Of a DNA stretch of 64,000 nt, positions 9,908 through 30,893 are shown in pieces (position 1 is the stretch's first letter; the number at the start of each line of letters is the position of its first letter). The stretch spans positions 416,001 to 480,000 of the forward strand of contig CAVUKB010000004.1 of NCBI GenBank assembly GCA_963741955.1, in the 5' to 3' direction. The DNA comes from an uncultured Acidobacteriota bacterium. GTDB taxonomy: Bacteria > Acidobacteriota > Thermoanaerobaculia > Gp7-AA8. Below the pieces are notes generated by a model. It worked only from the letters and a program-made list of their open reading frames with translations. It was not told where the DNA came from and made no database searches. Position numbers and translations under genes: made by a program.

Positions 9908-10337
9908 CTCTGCAGAAACCTCCTGCCGCGGACGGAGCCGAGTCGGACGCCCCGCGCTCCGCGGCGACGTCCGACTCGGGGGTGCGAATCCTCCGATTCG
10001 CCTCGTAGATCTTGTCGAGTGCGACGAAGACGGCGGCCGCGGCTGAACGCGGAGCGTCGGTGGCGCTGGTGAGCAGCTCCGCTTCTGCCGCGGGGCTGAG
10101 TGATGCTGCGGTCGCTCACGTGCCGTGATCCGCGCCGCGGATTGCGGCGAGAAACGTGATCCCGACGAGGAGCGCAGCACCGGTTCACCAGCTCCTACAA
10201 CGTCCGTGTCCTCGAGCTGCATCGCTCGAAGCGTGCCGGATCCGCAAGCGTTGCAACATTGCCACGAGGAACGCGTATTCGTCGGGTGCGTTGAACTGTC
10301 CAGTCTGGTAGTGTTCGTCTCCTCAGGAGGTCTCGTC

Positions 10338-13637: not shown

Positions 13638-13669
13638 CTGGAATCCGGTATCCAAGGCGGGGCGGCCCG

Positions 13670-15404: not shown

Positions 15405-15418
15405 GCACGAAAAGCCCC

Positions 15419-18400
15419 CTACTGCGCCGGCACGTACGTCGGATCCTGAGTCTGCATGTCGATCACGGAACCGTACGCAGTGATCTTCCCGCTGCCCGAT
15501 ACCACTCTCACGGAGATGCGCGCGTTGTAAGCGGTCGTCATTCCCATCGATTTGAGGACCTGCCCGAGCTGCGTGAATCCGTTCGCCGGCAGGTCGACCG
15601 TCATCTTCGCGGTCGTCAACGCGCCGGGGACGGTCGCCGAGATCTCGACCGTGACCGGGTTGCCGGTGACTTCAGTGATCCCGAGGTTCGTGCGGAAACG
15701 GTCCGACTGCTCGACCTGGAGGATCTGCAAAGGACGATCCCCCGCGGCGATCGCGTCATCCGGCATCACCGCCGGGATGAACTGGCCGTAGGTCCCGTTG
15801 GAAGTCTGGTTGTAGGTCCGCGCGGTGACCACCAGGCTGCTCGGTTCCGCGGTGGTGATCTGAACCGCACCGCCGGCACCGGGAGACTCGAAGAGCGACT
15901 GAACGACATTGTTCAGTGCCTTCTCCTTCCCCGCGTCGAGGATGACTTCCTTCGACACGGGAGCTCCTCCTCCGGTCGGATAGAGGGTCATGTCTGCAGT
16001 GACGCCGGACGCGCCACCATTGAAGATCCTCATGTCGGTCTGCCAGTTCGCGATCCCGTTCTTCAGATCCGCGACTCCCGGCACGACGTACTTCGTCTCG
16101 TGGATCGCGCCCGGGATCGCAGGTGCGATCAGGATCGGGTCACCGGTCTTCATGTCGATGGTCGATGCGTATGCGGTGACTTTTCCGGTGTCGGAGAGAA
16201 CCGAGACCTCGATCCGGCCGTCGTCGAGGGAGATCCCCTTCGTTGCGAGAACCTGATCGAGCTGGCGCTGCTCTCCCGGCTGGAGGTCTTCGGTGAACTC
16301 GGTCAGTGTCGTTCCCGAGGGGTCGAAGACCTTCACCAGCACAGTTGCCGGCTCGCCGGCCCCTTCGACCAACCCGAGGTTCGTGCGGTATGCGGATGAC
16401 TGAGCGATCTGCTGAAGGCTGATGGTGGTGCCCTTCGAGACCATGTCGGTGAAGCGCACTCCGGGGATGAACTGCCCGAACGTGCCGGCGGAGGTGTCGT
16501 TGTAGGTGCGGCTGGACGCGAGGGTGGTGAACCCGAGCGAGCTCGAGACGGATGCGGTACCTCCGGAGCTCGCAGAGACGGGGCGGACCTCGAGCACTCC
16601 GGTGGAGCTCTCGCCGGCGCTTCCCTTTCCGAACCAGTTGGCGAGAACGTCGTCGAGCGCGCCGGTTTGTCCCGGTGCGATGTCGAGCGTCGCGGAATAC
16701 CCGCTCGTGGTCCCATCCTGGCCGGAGGGAGTGAAGTAGAGCTGGTAGTGCATGGTATCGGTCGAAAGATTGCTCACCCGTACATCCGAGACCCACTTCG
16801 AGCTCACCCCGTCCGCATGCGCGACGGCCGGAATGATGATCGATTCCGCGGTCGGCGCGGTCTTCCCCGACGGCGTCGCGGGAGTGACGAGACTGAGAGA
16901 GATGGGAATGGTGGTGGTGCCGCCATCCATCGCCGAGATCGCGCCCGACTTCGCGGACGCGGTGGTGATGTTGACGGTCGAGGTGTTCGCTCCGGGGTCG
17001 AGCCGGCGCGGGTCCATCGAGATGGTGAGGGTCGCACCTTCAGGAGGGATGGTTCCGCTGGAGGGAGAGATGCTCAGCCACGGGTCGTCGCTGGTTGCGG
17101 TGAACGTTGCGGAGTCGGCGTTCTTCCCGGAGGAGCCGGAGCCGGGGAGGAAGATCTTCTGGGTGATCTTCTCCTGTTCGCCGAAGAGCGCGATGAACTT
17201 CTGATCCTTGCTGGTCGCATCCGGGGGCGGCGCGACCACCACCCGCACTGCGGCGGAGAACGCTCCGCGCTCGCCGCTGCAGTCGGCGATCGCACGGACG
17301 CGGTAGTACCAGGAGGTGGGACTCGTCGCGTCGTGCTGATACGAGGTCTGGAGGCCGGAGACGGTCCGGCTCGACGGATCGCTGAACGCCTCGTCGGATG
17401 ATTCCTGAATCTCGTAAGTCGTACTTCCGGGGAGAGGTGTCCACTGCACCGGATATCCGTCGCCGGAGAGGACGTGTCCCATGCTTCGAGCCCGGGGTTG
17501 GGACGGAGTGTCACAAGGAGCGGTGGGCAGCGCGGTGAATTGTGAGACGGGAGTGATCACGGATGCGCATCCGTCGATCATCGCCTCGACCGCCCAGAAG
17601 ATCCGGCCGGGCGGTACTTCGGTGACCAGCTGCGGGTCTGTGGTGGTGCCGAGGAGTGCGGGAAGGGCGCCGTTGACGGACGCATAGACGTTGTAAGCGC
17701 TGGCGCCGTCGACGGGAGTCCAGAGGAAGTCGGCGACGGGGCCGGTCTCCGCTCCGTCGGGCGGCGAGACCTGCATCGGCTGCGGGCGGATGCAGGCGGG
17801 ATCGATGGTCACCGTGCAGGTGCGAGAGTCGGATGTCACCGGTTTGCATCCAGGGAAGAGCGCGAAGGTGCGCCACCGGTACGATCCGGGCGGAAGGCGG
17901 CGGTCGGCAGCGGTCTGGGTGGTGATTCCGATCGGTGTCCACACGCCGTCGCCGCGCTGCGCCATCAACTCGTACGCGACTGCGCCGGAGACCGGATTCC
18001 AGGCGAAGCTCATCGTCGGATCGCTGGAGGTCCAGCCGTCGGGAGGCGAGGTGAGCTCCGGAGCCGGGTTCGCACAGTCGGACGATTCCGCGACCGTGAC
18101 TGCGACGGGTTGCGAGTGCGTGGCTGGACAGTCGCGGAAGAGCGCCTGAACGAACCACGTCAGTTTGCCCGGCTCGACGAGGACGGAAAGCGAGGTGTCC
18201 GGAGTCTGGCCTGCGACGCGCGGGACTCCGTTGGTGTAGACGATCCAGAGACGGTACGCGACGGCTCTGTTGACGGCACTCCAGGTGAATGTCGCGGGAG
18301 AATGGACCGTCGAACCAGCCGCAGGAGAGATCGGGAGAGGAGAAGCGTTGTCGCAGTGATCGACAGCGGCGAGGGTGAAACCCCGTTTCGCCGTTGTGAT

Positions 18401-19621
18401 CGGAGGACATCCGTTGAAGAACGCCTGGACGAACCAGCCGATGGTCCGGGCATCGAGCGGAACTTCGACGGCGGTTGCGCTGGTGGTTCGGATGTCCTCG
18501 AAGGGTCGCCCGTCGATGGAGACCCACAGCTTATAGGCGAACGCGCCGGGTGCGGCATTCCAGGAGAGCGTCACCGGAGAAGAGAGGCCGGTCGCACCTG
18601 CAGCGGGCGCGACGAGATCCGGTGCGCTGTTTCCGTTGCACGACGCCGACTCCGTCACCGTGAAGCTCGCGTGTGCGGAGACGACCGCGGGACAGCTCCT
18701 GAAGACCGCTTCGACCCACCAGGCGATGGTCCCGCTCGGGACGGGTGAGCTCAGCGTCGTCTCGCCGGACGTCTTGCCGAGAAGAGCCGGTGCGTTGCCG
18801 TTGACGGAAGCCCAGACGCGGTAGCCGATGGCATCCGGAACCGCGGACCATTGGAACGTCACCGGAGGCTGTACGTCCGATGTGCCGTCGGCCGGTGCGA
18901 GGAGCGTCGCAGCCGCGTGATCGCAATTCGGCGCCTCCGTCGTGAAATGCCCGAGCGTCGATCGTGTCGAAGGGCAGTCGGGGAACACTGCATCGACCCA
19001 CCAGACGATGTTTCCGACCGGGATGGTCGCGGTGAGGGAAGTCTCCGTCGTCTCGCCGGCCTTCTGGGGCAGTCCGGCGTCGACGGAAAACATCACCACG
19101 TACTTCGAGGCTCCGGAGACGGCGCGCCAGGAGAACGTGACGTCCGGATCGACGGTGGAGCCGGTCGCGGGTGAGGCGAGTGAAGGACCGTCGCTCGGAC
19201 AGTTGCTGGTGGTTTGCACCGTGAAGCGGGAGCAGAGACTGGAGCAGAATCCGGTGAAGGACGAGGCGGAGACCACGCGCCAGATGTACGTGTGTCCGGC
19301 TCTGATTGCGTTCGGATCGGGATTGAATGTGGTCTGAGTCCCGGGAACGGTGGCGACGGGCTGAATCGAGCCGCAGCTGCTCAGCGACGCATCGCCGAGA
19401 TAGATGTCGTAGTGATCGATTGCGCCTGGAGCCGGCGACCACTCGAGCTGGATCGTGCCGGAGACAGACGCTCCGTCGGCCGGGGACGTGGGTTGCGGAG
19501 GAGTGCATTGTCCGCTGGCGCTCCGGGCGATCCCGGAGAGGGAGAGAACCAGGACGCACGAAGCGATTCGGAGCAGTTTCCTGCTCGACGAAGAGACACG
19601 GGGCGTCGAAGACAAAGCCAT
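15419..19621 (-). CDS. large secreted/surface protein: 8 Cys-paired Fn3-like repeats, BACON-like domain, duplicated C-terminal module
   Basis: Signal peptide and GGAGGAG RBS. ~95-aa repeats C..P.L.SP.DG..V.F.W..V.GA..Y...W.V.A.F..C; SDDPWLSISPSSG; two copies of RTYN..GT(F/Y)GQFIP..RTNLG..AY.S.ID..T.DP. Confidence 0.85.
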   Translation of the reverse strand: MALSSTPRVSSSSRKLLRIASCVLVLSLSGIARSASGQCTPPQPTSPADGASVSGTIQLEWSPAPGAIDHYDIYLGDASLSSCGSIQPVATVPGTQTTFNPDPNAIRAGHTYIWRVVSASSFTGFCSSLCSRFTVQTTSNCPSDGPSLASPATGSTVDPDVTFSWRAVSGASKYVVMFSVDAGLPQKAGETTETSLTATIPVGNIVWWVDAVFPDCPSTRSTLGHFTTEAPNCDHAAATLLAPADGTSDVQPPVTFQWSAVPDAIGYRVWASVNGNAPALLGKTSGETTLSSPVPSGTIAWWVEAVFRSCPAVVSAHASFTVTESASCNGNSAPDLVAPAAGATGLSSPVTLSWNAAPGAFAYKLWVSIDGRPFEDIRTTSATAVEVPLDARTIGWFVQAFFNGCPPITTAKRGFTLAAVDHCDNASPLPISPAAGSTVHSPATFTWSAVNRAVAYRLWIVYTNGVPRVAGQTPDTSLSVLVEPGKLTWFVQALFRDCPATHSQPVAVTVAESSDCANPAPELTSPPDGWTSSDPTMSFAWNPVSGAVAYELMAQRGDGVWTPIGITTQTAADRRLPPGSYRWRTFALFPGCKPVTSDSRTCTVTIDPACIRPQPMQVSPPDGAETGPVADFLWTPVDGASAYNVYASVNGALPALLGTTTDPQLVTEVPPGRIFWAVEAMIDGCASVITPVSQFTALPTAPCDTPSQPRARSMGHVLSGDGYPVQWTPLPGSTTYEIQESSDEAFSDPSSRTVSGLQTSYQHDATSPTSWYYRVRAIADCSGERGAFSAAVRVVVAPPPDATSKDQKFIALFGEQEKITQKIFLPGSGSSGKNADSATFTATSDDPWLSISPSSGTIPPEGATLTISMDPRRLDPGANTSTVNITTASAKSGAISAMDGGTTTIPISLSLVTPATPSGKTAPTAESIIIPAVAHADGVSSKWVSDVRVSNLSTDTMHYQLYFTPSGQDGTTSGYSATLDIAPGQTGALDDVLANWFGKGSAGESSTGVLEVRPVSASSGGTASVSSSLGFTTLASSRTYNDTSAGTFGQFIPGVRFTDMVSKGTTISLQQIAQSSAYRTNLGLVEGAGEPATVLVKVFDPSGTTLTEFTEDLQPGEQRQLDQVLATKGISLDDGRIEVSVLSDTGKVTAYASTIDMKTGDPILIAPAIPGAIHETKYVVPGVADLKNGIANWQTDMRIFNGGASGVTADMTLYPTGGGAPVSKEVILDAGKEKALNNVVQSLFESPGAGGAVQITTAEPSSLVVTARTYNQTSNGTYGQFIPAVMPDDAIAAGDRPLQILQVEQSDRFRTNLGITEVTGNPVTVEISATVPGALTTAKMTVDLPANGFTQLGQVLKSMGMTTAYNARISVRVVSGSGKITAYGSVIDMQTQDPTYVPAQ

Positions 19622-19861
19622 CGCTCCTCCAGGCCTCGCGAGGGAGGCAGACCAATCTCCGGTTCACGCCTCACGGCGCGATATCTCTTGGACGGAGATG
19701 GACCGAGTTTGCTTACCTGCCGGACCATTGTAGCGCCGGAGGGGCGACGGCCGCATCGCGTCGCCCGGTCGTTTCGCTGCCCCGAGGATTCGGCAGCATC
19801 CGGCGGCGTCCGGCCGAAAGGCAGCTCACGCTTCCCGAGAAGGGTCCGGCCGGGTGAAGAA

Positions 19862-20040
19862 GGGGTCAGGCCGTTTTTCCTCTGTCCGGTCGCGGGCGGG
19901 ATCGAAGCGCGGGGTCGGAGGGAGCGGGGTCAGGCCCGCTTTCGGCTCTCTTGTCCGGTCGAGCGGGGGGAGCGGGGTCGAGCGGGGGGAGCGGGGTCAG
20001 GCCCGTTTTCGTCTCCGGGGAGGGGCGGGGTCAGGCCCGT
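19862..20040. repeat. G-rich short repeats GGGGTCAGGCC(C)G, 4 copies
   Basis: Copies start at 19862, 19926, 19993 and 20027, with intervening GAGCGGGG runs. Confidence 0.75.
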
Positions 20041-20076
20041 TCTCCGCTCCGGCCCGGCGCCGGCGTCTCGGCATTC

Positions 20077-20169
20077 TGTCACGAACTGGGAAATAGTGAG
20101 GATATGTGACCTTTATTGTCTACCAGTGTCCATGAATGTCTTTACACGGCAGGCGGCTCCGCGTACGAT
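20077..20169 (+). promoter_or_regulatory. 10-bp-phased TG(TC) direct-repeat array followed by a sigma70 promoter
   Basis: TGTC/TGGG/TGAG/TGAC/TGTC/TGTC/TGTC at 20077, 20087, 20097, 20107, 20117, 20127 and 20137. Then TTTACA (20141-20146), 17 bp, TACGAT (20164-20169). Confidence 0.65.
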
Positions 20170-20186
20170 CTCGTGACGGTCACGCG

Positions 20187-20936
20187 ATGCCCGATTCCGA
20201 GATCCTCAACATCCGCCAGCTTGCCGAGTACCTGATGGTGTCGGAAAAGACCGTCTACCGGATGCTCGACCGCAACCAGCTTCCCGCTTTGCGGGTGGGC
20301 ACCCAGTGGCGCTTCCGTCGTCAGGACATCGACGCCTGGCTCGAACAACAGGTGCAGCGCCCGGCGAGCGCCGGGAATCCGGAAACGCTCGACACGTTCG
20401 CTTCGTCCGAGCTCTCGATCCATCCGCTTCTCTCCGAGCAGAATGTCTGGCTCTCGATCGAAGCGGACTCACGCGACGCTCTTCTGGAGCGGATGCTCCG
20501 GGAGGGAGATCTCGACCCGGACGTGGATCGCGACCAGCTTCTCCGGTCGATCCTCGACCGCGAGGCGATCTGCTCGACGGCGCTCGTCGAGCAGGCGGCG
20601 TTTCCCCATCCCGTCGATCCCCGCCCGTTTCATTTTTCGCGAAAGAGGGTCCTGATCGCGACGCTGCGGGAACCGCTCGAGTTCAACGATCCTCACGGTC
20701 ACCAGCCGAGCGTGATCGCGATGATTCTCGCCCGCCGCATCCAGGGTCACATGCTCGCATTCTCCCGTGCGCTCAAGATCTTCGCCGACCCGGTGCTGAT
20801 CGATGCACTCCTCAGCGTTGGCACTCCTGCCGACGCGATCGAGGCGATCCGGATCGCCGAGGAGCCGCTCGACGCGATGAATGAAGGGGTGCCGGGAGAG
20901 GAGAAGGGAATGAGCCCGAAGGAGCCCGGATCGTGA
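20187..20936 (+). CDS. excisionase-type HTH fused to PTS EIIA (Fru/Ntr-type) domain
   Basis: LNIRQLAEYLMVSEKTVYRM..LPALRVGTQWRF HTH; REAICST..AAFPH EIIA region. Confidence 0.85.
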   Translation: MPDSEILNIRQLAEYLMVSEKTVYRMLDRNQLPALRVGTQWRFRRQDIDAWLEQQVQRPASAGNPETLDTFASSELSIHPLLSEQNVWLSIEADSRDALLERMLREGDLDPDVDRDQLLRSILDREAICSTALVEQAAFPHPVDPRPFHFSRKRVLIATLREPLEFNDPHGHQPSVIAMILARRIQGHMLAFSRALKIFADPVLIDALLSVGTPADAIEAIRIAEEPLDAMNEGVPGEEKGMSPKEPGS

Positions 20937-21601
20937 AGCTCACCGTCGGCGAAGCGGCGACGATGCTCGGCACGACCGACCAGCGGATCTACGACTGGAT
21001 CGAGGACGAGAGCCTTCCGGCGCAAAAAATCCGAGGAGAGTACCGGATCAACCGTGCGGAGCTCCTGGAGTGGGCCACGGAGCGGGATCTCACGTTCGCC
21101 CCGCGGGGATTTCAGCGCCTCGCCAGCGAGAACGATGTTCCGTCGCTCTCCCGCGCCCTCCGCAGCGGCGGCATCCATCGCAGCGCAGGAGGGTCAGGTC
21201 TCCACGAGATCCTCGGGGGGGTCATCCGCGAGCTTCCTCTCGCCGGCGACGAGGACCGCGACGCGCTTCTGCAGGTGCTCGTTGCGCGCGAAACGCTCGG
21301 GACCACGCCGGTCGGAGAGGGAATCGCCATTCCTCACGTCCGTCATCCGATCGTCCTCGCTCCGGGAGAGGCCATCGCCGCGCTCGTGCTCCTCGACCAT
21401 CCGCTCGCTCTGCGAGGTCCCGACGGCGTCGCCGTCGACACGCTCTTCTTTCTCGTTTCGCCGACCGTGCACGCGCATCTCGCGACGCTCGCGCGGCTCG
21501 CATATCTCCTGCGGAAGCCGGAGCTGAAGCAACTCCTCCGGCGCCGTGCACCCGACAGCGAAATTCTCGCAGCCATGGAACGGCTGGAGGCTTCGGCATG
21601 A
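20933..21601 (+). CDS. second excisionase-type HTH / PTS EIIA (PtsN-like) fusion
   Basis: LTVGEAATMLG..IYDWI..YRINRAEL HTH; RETLGTT.VGEGIAIPH EIIA signature. GTGA overlap with the upstream gene. Confidence 0.88.
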   Translation: MKLTVGEAATMLGTTDQRIYDWIEDESLPAQKIRGEYRINRAELLEWATERDLTFAPRGFQRLASENDVPSLSRALRSGGIHRSAGGSGLHEILGGVIRELPLAGDEDRDALLQVLVARETLGTTPVGEGIAIPHVRHPIVLAPGEAIAALVLLDHPLALRGPDGVAVDTLFFLVSPTVHAHLATLARLAYLLRKPELKQLLRRRAPDSEILAAMERLEASA

Positions 21602-23535
21602 CCGCGGTGCTGATCCTCGCCGGGATCGTCCTCTGCGCCGTCAGCGGCATCCCCGCACTCTTCTCCACCCGCAGTGGCGCGCGCGCATCGACGATGCTCA
21701 TCGCGCTGGGCGGGATCGCCGGAATCGCCGGCAGCATCTTCGCGCTCCGCGGCGAGATCGGGATCATCAGCGAGCCGTGGGCGATTCCGGGTGGTGCGTT
21801 CCACCTCCGCGTCGACGCCCTCTCGGCGTTCTTCATCATCCCCGTCTTCGTCGTCGCCTTCTCCTGCTCGCTCTACAGCGAGAGAAGCTGGCCGCAGTCG
21901 GTGCGAGGTGCGGGCGTGCTGCGCCTCTTCTTCGGTCTGGTCGCCGGCGCGCTTGTCCTTCTGATGAGCGCCGCGAACGCCATCCTCTTTCTCGCTGCAT
22001 GGGAGATCGTCGCAGTCGGTGCTTTCTTCCTCATCGGGGCGGGAAGCGAATCGGACGAGGTCCGGAAGGCGTCGTGGCTCTACCTCGCGGCGAGCCACAT
22101 CGCGACACTCGCTCTCTTCACCCTTTTCTCCGTGATCCACGCCGCGACGGGGAGCTGGGAGCTCGCAACGATCCACACCGCGGCGCACACCGGAATCCTC
22201 CCCATCGTCTTCGCCCTCGCCGTGACCGGATTCCTGATCAAGGCCGGCGCGATGCCGTTTCACGTCTGGCTCCCCGGCGCGCATGCCGGAGGTCCGAGCC
22301 ACGTCTCGGCGCTGATGTCCGGCGTGGTAATCAAGATGGGGATCTACGGACTGGTGCGCGTCCTCTCGCTGTTCGACACCACCCCCGGCTGGTTCGGATC
22401 GACCATCCTTCTGATCGGAATCGTCTCCAGCATCCTCGGCGTCGCGTTCGCGCTCGCGCAGCACGACTTCAAACGCCTTCTCGCATACCACAGCATCGAG
22501 AACATCGGGATCATCCTGATCGGGATCGGCACGGGCTTGATCGGAAAATCGATCGGAAGCCCCGCGCTCACGATACTCGGTTTCGCCGGGGGTCTGCTTC
22601 ACGTCTGGAACCACGGGATGTTCAAGTCGCTCCTCTTCCTCGGCGCGGGATCCGCGGTGCACTCGAGCGGCACCCGTGAGATCGACCGGATGGGAGGGCT
22701 CGCACACCGGATGCCGTGGACCGCGGGGGCGTTTCTCCTCGGGGCGGTGGCGATCTCCGGTCTTCCGCCACTGAACGGTTTCGTCAGCGAATGGCTCCTC
22801 TATCTGTCGAGTTTCACCGGGGCGATCGATGGGCGTTCGCTCCTCGTTTTCGCGGTCGCTCCCGCGCTCGCGATCACCGGCGCGCTCGCCGTCGCCTGTT
22901 TCGTGAAGGCGTTCGGAGTCGTCTTTCTCGGCGCGCCGCGTACGGCCGCTGCGGCTGCGGCGCACGAGTCGCCCCGCTCGATGCTCGTCGCGATGGCGCC
23001 GCTCGCCGTCGCATGCATCGCGATCGGACTTTTCCCGCAGCTCGTCGTTCCTGCGCTCGCCCCGGCGGTCGCAGTCGTTGCAGGGCACGCTCTTTCGGCC
23101 GATCTCGGTGCGTCGCTCCTTCCGCTGCAACTCGCTGCGATCGCGCTCGCGATCGCGCTCGGCGCCGGTTTCCTCCTCCTCCGCAAGCGGGTCAAGAATG
23201 CCCGACGGTCGGTCACCTGGGACTGCGGCTACGTGGCGCCGACTGCACGGATGCAGTACACGGCATCGTCGTTCGCGGCCACTCTGGTGAGTCTCTTCGC
23301 GTGGGTTCTCCGTCCCGTCAGCCACGCTCCCGGCAACCTTCCGCTCTTTCCCTCCGACCGCCGGTTCGAGAGTCACGTGCCCGACGTGGTGCTGGAAGGA
23401 GTGGTCGGTCCCGTGGTCTCGCGCGTCTCCCGGATCTCGCGGGTCGGCCGCGCGATCCAGAGCGGACGCCTTCACGCCTATCTCCTGTACGTGGGAATCA
23501 CCCTGGTGGTGCTCCTGATCTGGAGCTTCCGATGA
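21598..23535 (+). CDS. HyfB-like proton-conducting antiporter-like membrane subunit (Ehr complex)
   Basis: KAGAMPFHVWLPGAH, KRLLAYHSIENIG, GLPPLNGFVSE and TWDCGY..RMQYT motifs; ATGA coupling. Confidence 0.9.
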   Translation: MTAVLILAGIVLCAVSGIPALFSTRSGARASTMLIALGGIAGIAGSIFALRGEIGIISEPWAIPGGAFHLRVDALSAFFIIPVFVVAFSCSLYSERSWPQSVRGAGVLRLFFGLVAGALVLLMSAANAILFLAAWEIVAVGAFFLIGAGSESDEVRKASWLYLAASHIATLALFTLFSVIHAATGSWELATIHTAAHTGILPIVFALAVTGFLIKAGAMPFHVWLPGAHAGGPSHVSALMSGVVIKMGIYGLVRVLSLFDTTPGWFGSTILLIGIVSSILGVAFALAQHDFKRLLAYHSIENIGIILIGIGTGLIGKSIGSPALTILGFAGGLLHVWNHGMFKSLLFLGAGSAVHSSGTREIDRMGGLAHRMPWTAGAFLLGAVAISGLPPLNGFVSEWLLYLSSFTGAIDGRSLLVFAVAPALAITGALAVACFVKAFGVVFLGAPRTAAAAAAHESPRSMLVAMAPLAVACIAIGLFPQLVVPALAPAVAVVAGHALSADLGASLLPLQLAAIALAIALGAGFLLLRKRVKNARRSVTWDCGYVAPTARMQYTASSFAATLVSLFAWVLRPVSHAPGNLPLFPSDRRFESHVPDVVLEGVVGPVVSRVSRISRVGRAIQSGRLHAYLLYVGITLVVLLIWSFR

Positions 23536-24443
23536 ACGTTCTCGCCGCCGTGATCCTGAATCTGGCCGTGGTGCTGGTGGTCTCTCCGCTGATGCTCTCG
23601 GTGATCAACCGGACCAAGGCGATGGTGGCCGGGCGCACGGGGCAGCCGCTCCTCCAGCCGTATTTCGAGATCGCGAAGCAACTGCGCAAGGGAACCGTCC
23701 TCAGCGAGACCACCACGTTCGTCTTCCTTCTCGGGCCGGTCATCTCGTTCGTAGTGGTCCTCTTCGCCGCGCTCCTTCTTCCCCTGGGCGGGGTCAGAGC
23801 TCCAGTGGCCTTCAGTGGTGACGTGATTCTCTTCGTCTACCTCTTCGGGCTGGGCCGCTTCTTCACCACCGCCGCCGCGCTCGACACCGGTTCTCCGTTC
23901 GAGGGGATGGGTGCGGCCCGCGAGGCGACGTTCGCCTTCATGGCCGAGCCGGCGATCTTTCTCGGAATGCTCGCCCTCGCACGGATCTCGAAGACGCTCT
24001 CCCTTTCGTCCATGCTCTCGGTCTCCGGCGCGGAGCTCCGCACGGCGAGCGCCGCGGTGGTTCTGGTCGTCGCGAGCTGGTTCATCGTGCTGCTGGTCGA
24101 GAACTCGCGTGTTCCGTTCGACGACCCGAACACCCATCTCGAGCTGACCATGATCCACGAGGTGATGGTGCTCGACCACAGCGGCCCGGCGCTCGGTCTG
24201 ATCCTCTGGGGGAGCGCGATGAAGCTCTTCGTCTTCGCCGCCCTGATCGTGCACGTGGTCCTTCCGCGCACCGGCTCCACGGTCTTCGATGCCGCCGCAT
24301 CGGCCGGCGCGACGCTTCTTCTCGCGGTGGTGGTGGGCCTGGTCGAGAGCGGGATGGCGCGTCTCCGGCTCGTCCGCATCCCGCAGCTCCTGATCACTGC
24401 GAGCCTCGCTGCGACGTTCGCCGTAGTCCTGGTGGTGAGGTGA
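23532..24443 (+). CDS. HyfC/HycD (NuoH-like) membrane subunit
   Basis: GRTGQPLLQPY, DTGSPFEGMGAARE and ENSRVPFDDPNTHLELTMIHE motifs. Confidence 0.9.
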   Translation: MNVLAAVILNLAVVLVVSPLMLSVINRTKAMVAGRTGQPLLQPYFEIAKQLRKGTVLSETTTFVFLLGPVISFVVVLFAALLLPLGGVRAPVAFSGDVILFVYLFGLGRFFTTAAALDTGSPFEGMGAAREATFAFMAEPAIFLGMLALARISKTLSLSSMLSVSGAELRTASAAVVLVVASWFIVLLVENSRVPFDDPNTHLELTMIHEVMVLDHSGPALGLILWGSAMKLFVFAALIVHVVLPRTGSTVFDAAASAGATLLLAVVVGLVESGMARLRLVRIPQLLITASLAATFAVVLVVR

Positions 24444-25081
24444 ACATGAGCCACGCCGTCGACGGAATCCTGATCCTCCTCCTCCTGACGAACTTCTTCA
24501 TTCTCGGGACGGCGTCGCTCCGCGCCGCGATCCGGGCGGTTGCGATTCAGGGTCTGATCCTCGGGGTTCTCTCCCTCTGGGGCGAGAGCGAGCTGACTGT
24601 GCGTCTCGCCCTCTTCGTCGCTGCGACCGTGGCGGTCAAGGCGATCCTGATTCCGGGACTGCTCCAGAAAGCGATCCGTGACGTCCACATCCGGCACGAG
24701 GTGGAGCCGTTTCTCGGTTTCGTCCCATCGCTCTTTCTCTGTGCCGTCGGGACGGGGCTGGCAATCCTCTTCGCCGACCGTCTGCCGCTCGCGACGATGC
24801 ACCGCGGATCGCTCTTCGTTCCCGCTGCGCTCGCGACCGTCTTCGCGGGCTTCCTCGTGCTCACCACCCGGAGGAAGGCGATCTCTCAGGTCACCGGGTA
24901 TCTGGTCCTGGAGAACGGCGTGTACGTCTTCGGACTCCTCCTCTATCAGGCGATGATCATCGAGGTCGGCATCCTCCTCGACCTCCTGGTGGGCATCTTC
25001 ATCATGGGTATCGTCCTGAACCACATCCGTCGCGAGTTCTCGTCGCTCGACACCTCGCGCATGTCGAAGCTGAAAGAGTAG
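24440..25081 (+). CDS. HyfE-like membrane subunit
   Basis: AIQGLIL, VKAILIP, SQVTGYLVLENG and EVGILLD motifs. Confidence 0.87.
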   Translation: MNMSHAVDGILILLLLTNFFILGTASLRAAIRAVAIQGLILGVLSLWGESELTVRLALFVAATVAVKAILIPGLLQKAIRDVHIRHEVEPFLGFVPSLFLCAVGTGLAILFADRLPLATMHRGSLFVPAALATVFAGFLVLTTRRKAISQVTGYLVLENGVYVFGLLLYQAMIIEVGILLDLLVGIFIMGIVLNHIRREFSSLDTSRMSKLKE

Positions 25082-25083
25082 AC

Positions 25084-26514
25084 ATGACCCTCTGGCTCAT
25101 TCTCGCACCACTGATCGGCGCCCTTCTGGCGTTCGTCGTTCCTTCGGAGCGGCTGCGCCCGTCGATCGTCGCCGTCGCGGCCGTGGCGCATACGGCGCTC
25201 ACCGTCGGGGTGATCCGGAGCGGTTCGCACGGAAGTCTGATGGTCGAGTGGCTGCGTCTCGATGCGCTCGGCACTCTGGTCCTGCTGGTGATCAGCACAC
25301 TCTTTCTCGTCTGCGCGATCTACGCCGTAGGCTATCTCCGGAGCCGATCCGACCGGCCGAACCGGGTCTTCTGTACGTCGCTCCTTCTCTTCCTGGTCAC
25401 CACCACCGTCCTCACCATGGCCCAGCAGCTGACGGTGATGTGGGTGGCGATGGAAGCGACGACGCTCTCCACCGCGCTCCTTCTCTACTTCAACCAGAAC
25501 GAGCGATCACTCGAGGCCACCTGGAAGTACCTGATGATCGGATCCCTCGGCATCGCGTTCGCGCTGCTGGGCACCCTCTTCATCGCATATGCGACGTTCC
25601 TCGGGTTCGGCGACTCGAATCTCGACTATCCGCTCCTCGTCCATCGCGCTGCCGGACTCTCCGTTCCGTGGCTGCGTGCGGGTTTCGTCTTCCTCCTGGT
25701 CGGTTACGGGACCAAGCTCGGTCTCGCACCGCTCCACACCTGGAAGCCGGATGCTTATGGCGAAGCGCCGGGGGTGGTCGGTGCTCTCCTGGCCGGAGGG
25801 ATGACCAGCGCCGCGCTACTCGCTCTCCTTCGTGTCTATCGGATCGTCGATGCCTCCGGAGACGGCGTGTTCGCCCGAGGGCTGTTCGTCACTCTCGGGC
25901 TCCTTTCGATCGCCACGGCTGTGGTGATGATGGTCGGCCAGCGCGACCTCAAGCGTCTCCTCGCGTACTCCAGCGTGGAGCACGTCGGCGTGATCGCGGT
26001 CGGGATCGGGCTCGGCGGAGTGGGGATCTTCGGCGCACTTCTCCACATGGTGAACTACGCGATGACCAAGGGTGTGCTCTTCCTCTCTGCGGGGAACATC
26101 CATCGTGGCTACCGCAGCAAGAGAGTAGGGGAGGTGACCGGCGCATTGATCCGGCTTCCCGTTTCGGCGGGTCTCTTCCTCGCCGGGTTCTTCGCCATCA
26201 CCGGTTCACCGCCGTTCGGGCCGTTCGTGAGCGAGCTGACGATCCTCAACGCCGCGACCGGGCAGCACCGCGTCGCAGTCGCCGCGATCTACGTCACTCT
26301 CCTCGTCCTCGTCTTCGTCGCCATGGGCGCTTCGCTCATGCCGATGGTCGAAGGCGCGCCACCGGTTGACGGCGAGCCGCCCGTGCTGCGCGAGAAGTCG
26401 CTCGAGACGGCACCGCTCTTCGTCGCACTCGCACTGGTTCTGATGATGGGGATCTGGATTCCCGCCCCGCTTCAGAAACTTCTCCACGACGCGGCGAAGC
26501 TCCTGGGAGGATAG
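25084..26514 (+). CDS. HyfF-like antiporter-like membrane subunit
   Basis: WVAMEATTL, LEATWKY, GYGTKLGLAPLHTWKPDAY and KRLLAYSSVEH motifs. Confidence 0.9.
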   Translation: MTLWLILAPLIGALLAFVVPSERLRPSIVAVAAVAHTALTVGVIRSGSHGSLMVEWLRLDALGTLVLLVISTLFLVCAIYAVGYLRSRSDRPNRVFCTSLLLFLVTTTVLTMAQQLTVMWVAMEATTLSTALLLYFNQNERSLEATWKYLMIGSLGIAFALLGTLFIAYATFLGFGDSNLDYPLLVHRAAGLSVPWLRAGFVFLLVGYGTKLGLAPLHTWKPDAYGEAPGVVGALLAGGMTSAALLALLRVYRIVDASGDGVFARGLFVTLGLLSIATAVVMMVGQRDLKRLLAYSSVEHVGVIAVGIGLGGVGIFGALLHMVNYAMTKGVLFLSAGNIHRGYRSKRVGEVTGALIRLPVSAGLFLAGFFAITGSPPFGPFVSELTILNAATGQHRVAVAAIYVTLLVLVFVAMGASLMPMVEGAPPVDGEPPVLREKSLETAPLFVALALVLMMGIWIPAPLQKLLHDAAKLLGG

Positions 26515-28020
26515 ATGGCCACCGATCGGATACGACTCAGAAACGGAGAGGCAGCGCGGCTCGATGACATTCCTCGGCTTCCGATCGCGGAGCTCCGTCG
26601 TGGCGTGATCGAGAGCGTCAACGAAGGGGAGAGGATCGCTTCGCTCTTTGCATACCAACGAAGCGATGGACTGGAGCTCGTCGCGGTTCTCGCCAACGAC
26701 GCCACCGGTCGCCTCGGCATCTTCCGCGCCGGATTGCCCGACCTGTACGAGTCGATCACCTCCGAGTGTCCGCAGGCGCAGGCATTCGAGCGCGAGATCG
26801 CGGAGCAGTTCGGCGTGCGTCCTTCCGGTCATCCGTGGCTCAAGCCGGTCCGCTATCACGATTCGTGGCGCCCGGGTCACTCCGTGTTCGACGAGGGTAC
26901 GGTTCCGGCCGAGACGAAGCTCTTCCGCGTCGAAGGCGACGAGATCCACGAAGTCGCGGTCGGCCCGGTCCACGCCGGAGTGATCGAGCCGGGACATTTT
27001 CGTTTTCAGTGTCACGGCGAGACGGTCTTCCATCTGGAGATCGCGCTCGGGTACCAGCACCGCGGAATCGAGCGAAGCCTGATCGGCGGTCCATCGAAGC
27101 GATCGTTCCATTACCTCGAGACCGTTGCCGGGGACACCACCATCGGACATTCGGTCGCATTCGCACAAGCCATGGAGTCGCTCGCGGGGGTCAGGGCACC
27201 GGTCCGTGCGGACTCGCTTCGCGGAATCGCTCTCGAGCTCGAGCGCCTGGCGAACCACACCGGAGACCTCGGCGCGCTGAGCGGCGACGTCGCGTTTCTT
27301 CCCACCGCGTCATTCTGCGGGCGAATCCGAGGAGATTTCCTGAACCTGACCGCAGAGCTATGCGGATCGCGTTTCGGGCGCGGGATGGTGGTGCCCGGCG
27401 GGGTACGCTTCGATCTCGCGAAGGAGCAGATGGAAGGATTCGCGTCGCGGCTCGCTGCTGCGACGCGGGATGTAGTGGAAGCGGGGAAACTTCTGTGGAA
27501 CGCGCCGACGGTGATCGAGCGGTTCGAGAACACCGGTGAGGTGGCGGCGGAAGAATGCGATGCAATGGGTCTGGTCGGAGTGGCGGCGAGGGCATGCGGA
27601 AGATCGATCGACGTGAGGCACGATTTTCCGTCCGGCATCTACCGCTTCGCGCACGTTCCGGTGATGACCGCACACGTCGGCGACGTGAACGCGCGCGCGT
27701 TCGTCCGGTTCATGGAGATCCAGCGCTCGTCGGCCTTCATCGCGCGTCAGCTCGACGCGCTCCCTTCGACTCCGCTTCGGACCACGGTCGGCGCGCTGCG
27801 CCCGGAGATGATCGTCGTGTCGATGACCGAAGGATGGAGAGGCGAGATCTGTCACGTGGCGATCACCGACCAGAACGGGACGTTCGCGCGATACAAGATC
27901 ACCGATCCGTCGTTTCACAACTGGTTCGGTCTGGCCCTCGCACTGCGCGAGGGTCAGATCTCCGATTTCCCGCTCTGCAACAAGAGCTTCAATCTCTCGT
28001 ACTGCGGTCACGATCTCTGA
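26515..28020 (+). CDS. HycE/HyfG-like (NuoCD) large subunit lacking NiFe-binding CxxC motifs (Ehr large subunit)
   Basis: VGPVHAGVIEPGHFRF, ELERLANH and EGWRGE motifs. The L1 site reads ETVAGDT and the L2 site reads NKSFNLSYCGHDL. Confidence 0.9.
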   Translation: MATDRIRLRNGEAARLDDIPRLPIAELRRGVIESVNEGERIASLFAYQRSDGLELVAVLANDATGRLGIFRAGLPDLYESITSECPQAQAFEREIAEQFGVRPSGHPWLKPVRYHDSWRPGHSVFDEGTVPAETKLFRVEGDEIHEVAVGPVHAGVIEPGHFRFQCHGETVFHLEIALGYQHRGIERSLIGGPSKRSFHYLETVAGDTTIGHSVAFAQAMESLAGVRAPVRADSLRGIALELERLANHTGDLGALSGDVAFLPTASFCGRIRGDFLNLTAELCGSRFGRGMVVPGGVRFDLAKEQMEGFASRLAAATRDVVEAGKLLWNAPTVIERFENTGEVAAEECDAMGLVGVAARACGRSIDVRHDFPSGIYRFAHVPVMTAHVGDVNARAFVRFMEIQRSSAFIARQLDALPSTPLRTTVGALRPEMIVVSMTEGWRGEICHVAITDQNGTFARYKITDPSFHNWFGLALALREGQISDFPLCNKSFNLSYCGHDL

Positions 28021-28029
28021 GGGCGCCCG

Positions 28030-28797
28030 ATGCTGAAATCACTTCTCGCACGCGCCCGGCAGGGCCACCGCACTACGGCGTTCCCGGAGGGAGACGCGCC
28101 CTCTCTGCCGGCGCGCTTCAGAGGCCGCCCGGAGATCGACGTCTCGAAGTGTCCGGACGGATGCCGCGAATGCGCAGAGGCGTGCCCCGAAGAGGCGATT
28201 CTCCCGGGCGACGGCGGCGTGCGCGTCGACCTCGGGCGTTGCACCTTCTGTCCCCTGTGCGAAGAGGCGTGCCCCGAGGGGGCGATCTCGTTCAGCCGGG
28301 ATTACCGGCTCGCGACATCCGGCCGGGAAGATCTGCTCGTCGGGCCGGACGAAGAGCTGCGGCTCGCATCGGCTCTCGATGGTGAGCTGCGACGACTGTA
28401 CGGGCGTTCTCTCGATCTTCGTGTGGTGAGTGCGGGCGATTGCAATGCGTGCGCGGCCGACGTCAACGTCCTCACCACCATCGGCTGGGACATCGGACGT
28501 TTCGGGATCCGCATCGTCGCCTCGCCGCGCCACGCGGACGGGCTGCTGGTGCTCGGACCGGTCACCCGGAACATGGAGCTCGCGCTGCGGAAGACGTTCG
28601 ACGCGATCCCCGACCCGAAGCTCGTGATCGCCGTTGGGGCCTGCGCCATCTCGGGCGGGATCTACGCCGGCCACGACGAGACGCGCGGGATCCCGGCGGA
28701 CATCCCGGTCGATCTCTACATCCCCGGCTGCCCTCCACACCCTCTGACGATTCTGGACGGGCTCCTCCGGCTGCTCGGGCGCATCCCGTCGCGCTGA
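28030..28797 (+). CDS. 2x[4Fe-4S] ferredoxin fused to NuoB/HycG-like small subunit
   Basis: CxxxCxxCxxxCP and CxxCxxCxxxCP, then DCNAC, SPRHAD, GACA and PGCPP. Confidence 0.9.
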   Translation: MLKSLLARARQGHRTTAFPEGDAPSLPARFRGRPEIDVSKCPDGCRECAEACPEEAILPGDGGVRVDLGRCTFCPLCEEACPEGAISFSRDYRLATSGREDLLVGPDEELRLASALDGELRRLYGRSLDLRVVSAGDCNACAADVNVLTTIGWDIGRFGIRIVASPRHADGLLVLGPVTRNMELALRKTFDAIPDPKLVIAVGACAISGGIYAGHDETRGIPADIPVDLYIPGCPPHPLTILDGLLRLLGRIPSR

Positions 28798-29233
28798 AGC
28801 CCCTTGATGGGGGCTCGCATTGAATTCAGAGCAGGCGGACCCAGGACCTTCGCGCCCGGCTAAACAAAGTGACGCCCTTCGGGCTCCGGGGAGCAGGAGC
28901 GTCCGCAAATCGCGCAAATGAAATGGTCATCGAAGCCACGGGCCGCTGAGTCGCGGCACTTGTTACTGCGGAAGACGGGCGTCAGCGCTAAGGTAAATTG
29001 CGCGAGAGGGAGTGCCGCCCCCTGACGGGGGCTCCCGCTGGAGTCCGCACGCGCGGATCCGGGCCCTTACGGGCCCGGCTAAACAAAGTGACGCCCTTCG
29101 GGCTCCGGGGAGAGACGCGACGCGCGCTCTGGCTATGGCAAATCGCGCAAATGGAGTCGTTCTCGAAGCCACGGTCCTCTCCGTCACCGCACCCATTCCT
29201 GTCGAACGCGCCCGAACGGGCTATGGCAAATCG
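28797..29233. repeat. composite repeat: REP-like module plus 88-bp unit with core (TATG)GCAAATCGCGCAAATG, two sets
   Basis: GGCTAAACAAAGTGACGCCCTTCGGGCTCCGGGGAG is duplicated. Cores at 28905/28993 (degenerate) and 29138/29226. Confidence 0.8.
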
Positions 29234-29297
29234 TTTCTGACCTCGAGAGTGGTACTCTTTTCCCGTTCCTTACAATTGAAATCGCAGGAGGATCGGT

Positions 29298-30893
29298 ATG
29301 CCCCGGACCCCGCTGTTCCGTCTCCTCGGACGCGCTCTGCGCGAGGCGCAGGCGGCGAACCACCTCGGCATGAGCAGCAGCGAGATGGTCGACGGCCGTC
29401 GCGTCCATCGCGTCGACCGTCGCGAGTTCCTTGCGGTCACTGCCGCGGCAACAGCAGGTCTGGCCCTAAGCGGCTGCAAGACGGCCGCACCGGTGGAGCC
29501 GCCAGCAGACGAAGGCGACCCGGTTCTCATTGTCGGAGCCGGCATCGCCGGTCTCACCGCGGCGTACCGGCTCGGGCAGAAGGGCATTCCGGCTCGGGTG
29601 ATCGAAGCCCAAAGCCGCGTCGGCGGCCGCATGTACAGCATCCGCAACTTCTTCGCCGACGGACAGGTGGCGGAGCTCGGGGGAGAGCTGATCGACACGA
29701 ACCATACCGAGATCAGGAACCTCGCCGCGGAGCTCGGGATCGCGCTGGACGACCTCTCGCTCGAGTCTCCCGGAATTCACGCCGACATCTTCTATTTCGA
29801 CGGGGCGGTGCGCACGGAGGAGGAGGTGGTCGAGGCATTCCAGCCGATCGCGGCGATGATCGAGAGGGATCTCGCGACGCTGACTGGCGACGACGTCACG
29901 TACCGCGCTCCGAGCAACGCCGAGGCGCTCGACCGGAGGACCATCGCGCAGTGGCTCGACCAGAACGGAGTGAGCGGATGGATCCGAACGCTGCTCGATG
30001 TCGGATACACCACTGAATTCGGACTGGAGCTCGACGAGCAGTCGTCGCTCAATCTCCTCACCATGATCGACACGAACCCCGATCCATTTCACATCTTCGG
30101 CGAGAGCGACGAGCGCTTCCACACTCATGACGGGAACGACACTATCCCCACCGCACTCGCACGCCGGCTGGAGCGCGACGTGGAGACGAACACGTTTCTC
30201 GAGTCGCTGTCCGAGCGTGCGGACGGCTCATTTCTCGCTTCGGTGCGCCGGAATGGATCGAGCACCACGATCCGCGCTCCGCAGGTGGTGCTCGCGATTC
30301 CGTTCACCATCCTCCGCGATGTGCGGATCGACGTGGAACTGCCACCCGCAAAGGAGGCCGCGATCGCAACCCTCGGATACGGTACGAATGCGAAGGTGAT
30401 GGTGGGATTCGAACGGCGCGTCTGGCGCGACGAGTACGGGTCGAACGGGAGCGTGCTCACCGATCTCGCGTTCCAGCTCTCATGGGAGACGAGCCGGAAG
30501 CAGGAGGGGCGGTCCGGAATCCTGACGAACTTCACCGGCGGAAGACACGGCGTGGAGGTGGGGGAAGGAACGGATGCGGAACAGGCGCGGAAGTTCGCGG
30601 AGGATCTCGATCGCGTTTTTCCCGGGATCGCCGCAGCCCGCGGTGATTCGAAGGCAGTTCGCTTCCATTGGCCGACGTTCCGTTTGACGCGTGGGAGCTA
30701 CGCGACGTACCGTCCGGGGCAATGGACGACACTGCGGGGCGCGGAGGGAGAAGCGGTTCGCAATCTCTTCTTCGCCGGCGAGCACTGCTCGCTCGAGTTT
30801 CAGGGGTTTATGCAGGGCGGCTGCGAAACCGGAGAAGCGGCGGCGCGCGCAGTCGCGGCTGCGCGGGGAGTTGCTGCGCGAGGCGTCGCGTGA
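29298..30893 (+). CDS. flavin monoamine oxidase family protein with Tat/lipoprotein-like signal
   Basis: VGAGIAGLTAA, RVGGR, ELGGE and FFAGEH..GFMQGG motifs; DRREFL..LSGC; AGGAGG RBS. Confidence 0.9.
   Translation: MPRTPLFRLLGRALREAQAANHLGMSSSEMVDGRRVHRVDRREFLAVTAAATAGLALSGCKTAAPVEPPADEGDPVLIVGAGIAGLTAAYRLGQKGIPARVIEAQSRVGGRMYSIRNFFADGQVAELGGELIDTNHTEIRNLAAELGIALDDLSLESPGIHADIFYFDGAVRTEEEVVEAFQPIAAMIERDLATLTGDDVTYRAPSNAEALDRRTIAQWLDQNGVSGWIRTLLDVGYTTEFGLELDEQSSLNLLTMIDTNPDPFHIFGESDERFHTHDGNDTIPTALARRLERDVETNTFLESLSERADGSFLASVRRNGSSTTIRAPQVVLAIPFTILRDVRIDVELPPAKEAAIATLGYGTNAKVMVGFERRVWRDEYGSNGSVLTDLAFQLSWETSRKQEGRSGILTNFTGGRHGVEVGEGTDAEQARKFAEDLDRVFPGIAAARGDSKAVRFHWPTFRLTRGSYATYRPGQWTTLRGAEGEAVRNLFFAGEHCSLEFQGFMQGGCETGEAAARAVAAARGVAARGVA

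Follow-up and report, generated by a model that had tools for sequence, protein, structure and literature searches.

What is a membrane-bound relative of hydrogenase-4 that lacks the ligands of a [NiFe] centre doing behind two DNA-binding proteins that each carry a domain of the phosphotransferase system (PTS)? The question is raised by a stretch of 64,000 nucleotides (nt) from an uncultured Acidobacteriota bacterium of the Thermoanaerobaculia (contig CAVUKB010000004.1, positions 416,001 to 480,000 of the forward strand; the whole stretch, numbered from its first letter, is called the window below), where eight tightly packed + strand genes, G1 to G8 (20187-28797), comprise the six structural genes of an Ehr complex and, ahead of them, two genes for proteins in which a helix-turn-helix (HTH) domain is joined to an EIIA domain. 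Ehr itself is already known; what is new is that the link between this kind of regulator and Ehr recurs across loci and is not a local accident. The explanation that we favor, with a probability of roughly 0.55, is that the HTH-EIIA protein acts as a one-component autoregulator of BldC/Xis fold, switched by phosphorylation through a regulatory PTS, which controls the expression of ehr.

The ehr locus is one operon, its junctions measuring, in order, -4, -4, -4, -4, +2, 0 and +9 nt, in a window whose G+C content is 65%. Behind the two regulator genes come G3 (21598..23535), for an antiporter-like membrane subunit of 645 amino acids (aa) of the EhrA or HyfB type (Proton_antipo_M, E 3.5e-51); G4 (23532..24443), for the 303-aa membrane subunit EhrB, which resembles NuoH and HyfC (NADHdh, E 9e-31); G5 (24440..25081), for the 213-aa HyfE-like membrane subunit EhrC, with a weak match to Oxidored_q2; G6 (25084..26514), for a further antiporter-like membrane subunit, the 476-aa HyfF-like EhrD (Proton_antipo_M, E 4e-47); G7 (26515..28020), for the 501-aa large subunit EhrL, made of a NuoC-like part and a NuoD/HycE-like part (Complex1_30kDa and Complex1_49kDa); and G8 (28030..28797), for the 255-aa EhrS, in which a ferredoxin domain with two [4Fe-4S] clusters (4Fe-4S dicluster domain, residues 34-87) is fused to a NuoB/HycG-like small subunit (Oxidored_q6, residues 138-247), a fusion that spans both halves in 67 of the 74 G8-like genes of related loci. 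Three membrane subunits also match NCBIfam models of hydrogenase 4, namely subunit B (G3, E 3e-168), the membrane subunit (G5, E 2e-23) and subunit F (G6, E 2e-94), and since all the NCBIfam matches fall under the curated equivalog cut-offs, there is no textbook Hyf or Nuo protein among the products of the operon. A Pfam scan of 43 other selected open reading frames (ORFs) across the 64 kb found neither hyp nor PTS genes, nor any maturation protease.

Whether such a complex could handle H2 is decided by G7, whose best relative in the PDB is E. coli HycE (7z0s_E, E 2.9e-41 by phmmer). In the phmmer alignment ETVAGDTTIGHS of G7 stands under RVCGICGFAHS of HycE, and sfnlsy under the C-terminal sldpcy, where that alignment ends; the fourth ligand position was taken from an alignment with the four NiFe-type representatives, which have NKSF[EN]LCY[SA]C where G7 has NKSFNLSYCG. 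The residues at the four [NiFe] ligand positions of G7 are thus A, T, S and G: AGDT occupies the L1 site, where hydrogenases have CGxC, SYCG takes the place of CxxC, and one cysteine near the C-terminus, within the NKSFNLSYCGHDL that ends the protein, lies one residue out of register. In an alignment of G7 with 100 cluster representatives (440-700 aa, drawn from the best 150 matches), 81 of the 101 sequences are of Ehr type, with xGD[ST] and SYxG, 4 are of NiFe type with both CxxC motifs, and the remaining 16 are variant or truncated, none of them having the full set of cysteines. In all 79 homologues from related loci the L1 site reads [AGS]GD and the C-terminus NKSF..SY[CAS]G.D; a cysteine is present at any of the four ligand positions in 0 of 80 aligned sequences, the near-terminal cysteine is replaced by alanine or serine in 12 of these 80, and G206, D207, N489, K490, S491, Y496, G498 and D500 are invariant (alignment A1). 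So strongly conserved a replacement suggests that the site has been kept for some non-hydrogenase function and has not simply decayed.

Judged by these residues, the complex is the NiFe-less Ehr of the literature, which in the available passages of the sources is presented as a relative of group 4 hydrogenases without NiFe ligands and with unknown function (PMC6349859, PMC10284858, PMC7894505, PMC13194489, bioRxiv 10.1101/765248), and with no [NiFe] site Ehr cannot make or use H2. Its subunits are homologous to those of group 4 [NiFe]-hydrogenases and to NuoD/NuoB (Complex1_49kDa, Complex1_30kDa, Oxidored_q6), and a membrane arm with NuoH-like, HyfE-like and Mrp/NuoL-like antiporter subunits is encoded in the same cluster, while the L1 (RxCGxC) and L2 (DPCxxC) cysteines that define a group 4 [NiFe]-hydrogenase are lacking. 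The sequence-only reading of this stretch, which preceded the searches reported here, had proposed the tight packing of the eight genes, a large subunit without NiFe ligands, the fusion of small subunit and ferredoxin, and the absence of hyp and maturation protease genes nearby, and in each of these respects our results agree with it, the alignments to HycE and to Ehr-type sequences having all four cysteines replaced.

Ehr, which stands for Ech-hydrogenase-related or energy-converting hydrogenase-related, was first named in Geobacter sulfurreducens, where, in the passages of the literature available, GSU0739-45 correspond to EhrA-1, A-2, B, C, D, L and S. The Geobacter complex has in common with that of the window the set and order of its subunits, the loss of the NiFe cysteines and the fused ferredoxin-small subunit, and four Geobacteraceae loci of the sample described below, whose members carry L numbers, have large subunits 55-58% identical to G7 (L016, L022, L039 and L040); the window differs in having one EhrA-like gene and two leading regulator genes, whereas Geobacter-type loci have a single regulator directly before the EhrA-like gene, in line with the operon in L039. 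No mention of a regulator occurs in the available passages of the papers on Geobacter Ehr (PMC7894505, PMC6349859, PMC10284858). The E. coli Hyf and Hyc complexes (7Z0S) have homologous subunits in the order HyfB, C, E, F, G and H+I. In contrast to both, the complex of the window has no NiFe ligands, its ferredoxin and small subunit are fused, and no equivalents of HyfA, HyfD or HyfJ, no FdhF and no hyp genes were seen in the scanned window ORFs. Hyf and Hyc are under the control of the sigma-54 activators HyfR and FhlA.

Relatives of the large subunit are numerous, as 853 protein clusters (50% identity) match G7 at E <=1e-30 and species-representative genomes contain at least 597 Ehr-related stretches, with NiFe-type and other relatives counted in both figures. 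To follow the regulator we used the best 80 of the at least 597 confirmed stretches, retrieved with an alignment of 42 diverse Ehr-type large subunits; this sample leans toward relatives of the window EhrL and lies outside the window's own subclade (G7 identity of at least 63%). The ORFs of these loci were searched with G1-G8 and regulator candidates were then checked against Pfam, which finds both domains in 45 of 51 candidates and HTH_17 in 46 of them; 61 loci can be judged for the presence of the regulator, the contig stopping too near the cluster in the other 19.

An HTH-EIIA gene lies in or beside the cluster in 46 of the 80 loci, all of them among the 61 judgeable ones. The regulator is first and contiguous with the cluster in 34 loci (including L013, where it directly precedes EhrL) and nearby in four others: in the Geobacter loci L016 and L022 regulator and EhrA form a pair that runs divergently, in L038 a gap of about 0.8 kb comes after the pair, and in L005 the regulator is a fragment in a frameshifted assembly; L078 likewise has a fragment. 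Linked regulators are found in Verrucomicrobiota, Planctomycetota, Acidobacteriota, Geobacteraceae and their relatives, Spirochaetota, Hydrogenedentota, Fibrobacterota, Omnitrophota, Cloacimonadota, Actinomycetota and Gemmatimonadota. When the flanking ORFs were clustered all against all, in sets of at least 100 aa and of 55-140 aa, the next commonest family was present in 9 of 80 loci at most, the top families being histidine kinases, sigma-54 activators, SulP transporters, a zinc-ribbon protein, ABC ATPases and integrases; hence the regulator is the sole widely conserved companion of the six structural genes. Among the same clustered ORFs there is no conserved electron-donor module or PTS partner beside Ehr, none exceeding 9 of 80 loci, and no HPr-like family recurs. 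A lack of conservation of HTH-EIIA genes beside Ehr was the first of the outcomes that, by its own account, would have refuted the sequence-only reading, and these counts do not refute it.

The two leading proteins of the window, G1 (20187..20936, 249 aa) and G2 (20933..21601, 222 aa), both combine HTH_17 (E 2e-17 and 1e-12, respectively) with PTS_EIIA_2 (E 3e-14 and 3e-15); the start of G1 at 20187 is favoured over an in-frame ATG at 20136, given that the alignment of orthologues has M-P opening the protein. In G2, which represents the widespread ehr-linked form, His135 lies in GIAIPH, and the alignment of GEGIAIPH with GEGVAIPH of PtsN (3urr) puts it at the position of the PtsN active-site histidine; in G1, His141 lies in AAFPH, which aligns with VAIPH of 2a0j. 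Neither His135 nor His182 of G2 varies among 50 of 50 sequences that represent the window and the loci, and His141 of G1 is likewise constant in 65 of 65 orthologues. The solved structures closest to G2 are those of PtsN (E 1e-11 by sequence and 5e-6 by fold), which are also the best fold matches of its predicted model (predicted local distance difference test, pLDDT, 84), and regulatory domains of SLC4 anion exchangers are among the fold matches as well. The predicted model of the HTH domain (pLDDT 88) matches the DNA-bound MerR-like winged HTH of RacA, SoxR and NmlR, the excisionases RdfS and Pukovnik Xis, and BldC (6amk_B; TM score 0.85 by target, root-mean-square deviation 1.2 Å), the Foldseek E-values being weak (0.02-0.2) because the domain is short. 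An Xis/BldC-type HTH joined in both proteins to an EIIA domain that retains its histidine is what the sequence-only reading had described, and these results support the description. In the databases such proteins bear generic names ('PTS sugar transporter subunit IIA', 'excisionase family DNA binding protein'), and the same architecture occurs away from Ehr in Atlas clusters in which Chlamydiota or Myxococcota is the commonest phylum.

The pair of paralogues seen in the window is not the general state: most loci have one G2-type gene, and G1-type genes elsewhere are differently placed. A quick tree, supported by SH-aLRT values only, splits a G1-type group from a G2-type group (SH-aLRT 99): the former unites G1 and its homologues from Thermoanaerobaculia with the additional copies of L076, L079, L061 and L007 (in L007 the copy lies about 8 kb away), the latter every leading copy. 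L021, the sole Thermoanaerobaculia locus of the sample with upstream sequence, has a single G2-type gene at 57% EhrL identity. G1 has 203 database relatives at E <=1e-5, and the 119 of them that are listed are 58-69% identical, all those with organism names being labelled Thermoanaerobaculia or Acidobacteria. The match lists of G1, G2 and G7 share equal-sized longest contigs (23549, 42573 and 18818 in all three; 83793, 39721, 142781 and 10658, among others, in two of them), which suggests, indirectly, that the arrangement G1-G2-ehr is kept in the subclade of the window. The two-gene arrangement appears to be confined to this Thermoanaerobaculia subclade, one regulator gene being the common state. 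The hetero-oligomer of the two paralogues that the sequence-only reading had held possible gains no support: a prediction of a complex of G1 with G2, from alignments of 65 sequences each and without controls, scored 0.00 and speaks neither for nor against it.

Conserved DNA upstream of the operon is compatible with a DNA-binding autoregulator and suits the DNA-binding part of the one-component circuit proposed earlier. Ahead of G1 (20105..20141, +) stand operator-like tandem direct repeats with a 10-nt period, TGTCT at 20117, TGTCC at 20127 and TGTCT at 20137, that is 70, 60 and 50 nt before the ATG of G1, preceded by a degenerate TGTGA at 20105; the pattern TGTCYN5TGTCY has two matches in the 64-kb window, both in the ehr promoter. 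Under a strict rule, tandem TGTC[CT] at a spacing of 10 or, rarely, 11 nt is found in 13 of 36 regions upstream of regulator-led operons, against 0 of 36 on the opposite strand of the same regions, 0 of 24 promoters of clusters without a leading regulator and a background of 0.11% of 35332 locus windows of 150 nt; a relaxed rule gives 15 of 36 upstream, 2 of 36 on the opposite strand and a background of 0.8%. The repeat unit has a consensus of about aAATGTCCAaa. For most of the 13 positive regions the distance from the repeats to the start codon is 35-51 nt (L015 and L018, at 74-128 nt, are exceptions); the repeats often stand directly after a TTGACA element and, 17 nt on, a -10-like element, which is a repressor-type position, and the positive loci belong to Verrucomicrobiota, Planctomycetota, Thermoanaerobaculia, Hydrogenedentota and Geopsychrobacteraceae. 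In the window the repeats abut the -35 element of a sigma-70-like promoter candidate (20141..20169, +; TTTACA, a 17-nt spacer and TACGAT), defined by consensus match only and the single such match in 19400-29400 against a shuffle mean of 0.6. A palindrome at 20168..20188 (+), ATCTCGTGAC-G-GTCACGCGAT, with 10-nt arms that are 90% complementary and 1 nt apart, overlaps the start codon of G1 and could be a second operator.

The mechanism that we propose would begin with the complex itself. The six structural genes would yield an Ehr complex related to hydrogenase-4 and complex I, with two antiporter-like, one NuoH-like and one HyfE-like subunit in the membrane and a peripheral arm of EhrL and EhrS predicted to hold three [4Fe-4S] clusters; by homology, Ehr most likely couples the transfer of electrons from a low-potential donor, such as ferredoxin, to ion translocation. 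G1 and G2 would be one-component regulators in which a MerR-like winged HTH at the N-terminus is followed by an EIIA-Ntr-like domain at the C-terminus, the HTH domains binding the tandem TGTC[CT] repeats at their own promoter on the same helix face, head to tail like BldC. We infer that the EIIA domains may be phosphorylated by the PTS: a regulatory PTS (EI-Ntr or EI-R, then NPr/HPr) would govern the phosphorylation of the EIIA histidine and in this way alter oligomerisation or affinity for DNA, so that ehr expression should follow the phosphoenolpyruvate (PEP)/pyruvate and carbon/nitrogen status of the cell. The G2 type would be the ancestral and widely conserved partner of Ehr, and the G1 type a second paralogue that the Thermoanaerobaculia lineage placed in front. 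Transporter-less regulatory PTS chains are described, in the available passages of the sources, for Geobacter, Planctomycetes, Chlamydiales and Leptospira (PMC2405797, PMC13104625), and the ehr-linked regulator is found in these lineages.

Parts of this scheme have counterparts in known systems. PtsN, the EIIA-Ntr protein, has the EIIA_2 fold and the aligned active-site histidine in common with G2; it is usually encoded beside rpoN and acts by protein contact. It is free-standing, however, with about 150-160 aa, whereas the EIIA domains of the window are fused to an HTH and encoded in the ehr operon, and the PtsN equivalog TIGR01419 is not reached (56.6 bits for G2 and 25.6 for G1, against a cut-off of 138.7). 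The accessible parts of the literature have members of the EIIA-Ntr group relaying the state of PTS phosphorylation to ion transport systems such as TrkA and KdpD. BldC has the same small HTH fold and binds direct repeats head to tail, according to the passages available (PMC5859096), and the candidate sites of the window are likewise tandem repeats one helical turn apart; BldC is nevertheless a free-standing protein of 68 residues with the repeat AATTxxxxC, whereas the window HTH has TGTC[CT] as its candidate repeat and carries an EIIA domain, a fusion that sets it apart from the BldC family, whose members are small, free-standing and devoid of a coiled coil or an effector domain. The principle proposed for HTH-EIIA proteins is that of the regulators with PTS regulation domains (PRD), such as MtlR, LicR, CelR and AtxA, which are portrayed, as far as the accessible text goes, as DNA-binding regulators set by PTS phosphorylation of built-in PTS-like domains; the window proteins differ from these in being much smaller, in the type of HTH, in having a non-sugar target, and in the lack of PRD or EIIB-like Pfam matches.

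Several observations weigh against the autoregulator reading. The gene is missing from 15 of the 61 judgeable loci (Riflebacteria, Geothrix/Holophagaceae, Myxococcales and others), and Ehr can therefore work without the regulator. Six Verrucomicrobiota loci have the regulator flanked by two EhrA-like genes (L052, L053, L058, L062 and L071 among them, at about 4040-5090), L061 has a second copy, of G1 type, between EhrD and EhrL (9228-9989), and a G1-type copy follows EhrS in L076 and L079; inner positions of this kind are not what one expects of a plain autoregulator, and they would be in keeping with a role resembling that of a subunit. The repeats are found in only 13-15 of 36 upstream regions, the sequences conserved in the divergent intergenic region of the Geobacteraceae loci are different ones, and in the window the true -10 element could instead lie just upstream of the repeats, which makes their placement relative to the promoter uncertain. 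No EI, HPr/NPr or HprK was found in the scanned window ORFs or as a conserved neighbour of the related loci. Finally, 7 of the 65 G2 orthologues of the two-paralogue clade (P0123, P0128, P0134, P0165, P0166, P0189 and P0233 of alignment A3) have Gln or Asn at His135; no such loss is seen without a second paralogue that has kept its histidine, and, together with the invariance of the G1 histidine, the losses fit either a division of labour between the paralogues or a relaxed constraint on G2.

The inner positions are the chief ground for a rival explanation that we hold to be unlikely, namely that HTH-EIIA proteins act mainly after translation, the EIIA domain docking on Ehr, for example on an EhrA-type subunit, and gating ion or electron flow, with a secondary or autoregulatory part left to the HTH. 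This possibility, which can coexist with an autoregulator, also draws on the fact that the regulator directly precedes the EhrA-like gene even when the pair is divergent (L016, L022) or gapped (L038), on the 4-nt overlaps of the window genes, which permit translational coupling, and on known EIIA-Ntr proteins, which act by contact with proteins such as TrkA and KdpD in the passages available (PMC4635465, PMC9239096); yet the HTH is strongly conserved, the repeat sites upstream are conserved too, and a regulator that is simply the first gene would precede EhrA as well, later rearrangement being able to explain the inner positions. Doubtful, too, is the view that the EIIA-like domain is a ligand-binding or oligomerisation module which senses a metabolite, redox state or an anion and accepts no phosphate. 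The lack of PTS genes in the scanned window ORFs and near the related loci, the loss of His135 in some G2 orthologues, the SLC4 anion exchanger domains that share the EIIA fold, and the SulP anion transporters beside the cluster in 7 loci would all suit it, but both histidines typical of EIIA_2 are invariant across phyla, His141 of G1 never varies, His135 is lost only alongside an intact paralogue, and the phyla concerned are reported, in the passages available, to have regulatory PTS chains (PMC2405797, PMC13104625).

Two further alternatives fare much worse. That the neighbourhood is incidental, the HTH-EIIA genes regulating other targets and merely lying upstream of ehr, might be suggested by the occurrence of the architecture away from Ehr, as in the distant copy of L007 and the Chlamydiota and Myxococcota Atlas clusters, but it is very improbable in view of the 46 loci across phyla that keep the gene where no other neighbour exceeds 9, and of the 4-nt overlaps in the window. 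That the complex is a working hydrogenase whose metal centre is held by other residues is hardly credible: its overall homology to HycE and HyfG, the one cysteine near the C-terminus (NLSYCG) and the greater abundance of Ehr subunits in formate-grown Geobacter, as given in the available part of PMC7894505, speak for it, while cysteines are absent from the four ligand positions of G7 and of all 80 sequences aligned with the related loci, the near-terminal cysteine is itself replaced in 12 of these 80, hyp genes are missing from the scanned window ORFs, and Ehr is treated as a non-hydrogenase in the passages available (PMC6349859, PMC10284858, PMC13194489). A more far-reaching proposal, which we consider speculative and quite improbable in its entirety, would make the HTH-EIIA protein a seventh, phospho-switchable component of Ehr that represses its own operon and also binds the complex, with the PTS gating a respiratory-type ion pump, the control of Ehr being an ancient and perhaps the original job of the transporter-less PTS, and, in the two-paralogue clade, G1 sensing the PTS and G2 serving as the partner that binds DNA or the complex; if this were true, the transporter-less PTS in question would be that of Planctomycetota, Verrucomicrobiota, Spirochaetota and Geobacter.

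Taken as a whole, the sequence-only reading is supported in part: for the NiFe-less Ehr, the linkage of the regulator, the histidines and the HTH fold. The repeats upstream fit a DNA-binding autoregulator, and the pair of paralogues is not the general state. Our literature search found no link between HTH-EIIA proteins and Ehr and no HTH_17-EIIA regulator (Coppi 2005 and Marreiros 2013 lay outside that search and may mention the gene), and in a 2026 review of the PTS-Ntr the terms 'DNA-binding', 'fused' and 'hydrogenase' do not occur. Ehr is widespread, and a regulator that accompanies it in more than 10 phyla offers a way into its function: the signal of the regulator (PTS state, hence PEP/pyruvate and carbon/nitrogen balance) and its candidate DNA site would tell when Ehr should be made, and regulator mutants in tractable Geobacter could therefore reveal the conditions under which Ehr acts and its substrate. 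If the autoregulator reading is correct, HTH_17-EIIA proteins would represent an undescribed and simple type of PTS-controlled transcription factor, and the link between EIIA-Ntr and ion transport would extend from K+ systems to a complex I-like machine.

Some observations on the related loci stand apart from these arguments. Seven loci encode a SulP-family anion transporter along with the Ehr cluster (L046:2336-4243, L068:2582-4381, L050:9991-11952, L013:10383-12371, L052:36-1766, L058:1660-2223 and L062:12107-14020), the gene directly abutting the cluster in L046, L068 and L050, and the four SulP proteins that were scanned have a C-terminal STAS or P-II-like domain; together with the likeness of G2 to the fold of SLC4 bicarbonate exchangers, these neighbours hint, if only weakly, at some connection with anions or bicarbonate. 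Three loci without the regulator, L037 (Candidatus Rifleibacterium) and L029 and L033 (unclassified metagenome-assembled genomes), share a promoter-like stretch, TTGACA followed further on by GGTGGTAGAACG, before the first EhrA-like gene, which suggests that Ehr is controlled differently there. EhrL-EhrS genes without adjacent membrane-subunit genes are found in two Planctomycetaceae loci (L013:177-3253 and L027:10013-12369), and in the Geobacteraceae locus L022 the Ehr cluster is followed by a second, more distant hyf-like cluster of six genes (13380-20557; G7-like, E 2e-79).

In the window itself, a weak terminator-like hairpin (28942..28957, +) follows the last gene of the operon, and since the scan returned 8 such sites in the region against a shuffle mean of 5.4, it is not significant on its own. 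At gathering thresholds, Rfam has a single match in the window, to a tRNA, and none in the ehr leader. Next to the operon, and divergent from it, lies an ORF of 1400 aa (15419-19621, -) with weak matches to BACON_2 and GH85_C only, and the 565-nt gap between it and G1 contains four direct copies of GGGGTCAGGCC(C)GYTTY (19862-20043, +; spacing 64, 67 and 34 nt), a pattern that, with one mismatch allowed, has 5 matches in the window, 4 of them in this gap, against 0.01 expected; a perfect 19-nt tandem lies at 19957-19994. Folding of the RNA of this repeat region (19850-20070) gives z = -0.8 and thus no sign of a structured leader. The surroundings are otherwise those of an ordinary chromosome, with hrcA-grpE-dnaK-dnaJ, rpoD, dnaG, nadA, mutS2 and others, and include, at 41896-47325 (+), a protein of 1809 aa that joins a Ser/Thr kinase, an AAA_16 ATPase, TPR repeats, a GAF domain, a sigma-54 activator and a Fis-type HTH, an unusual fusion of a kinase to an enhancer-binding protein, and, divergent from it at 39298-41949 (-), an 883-aa Ser/Thr kinase with TPR repeats.

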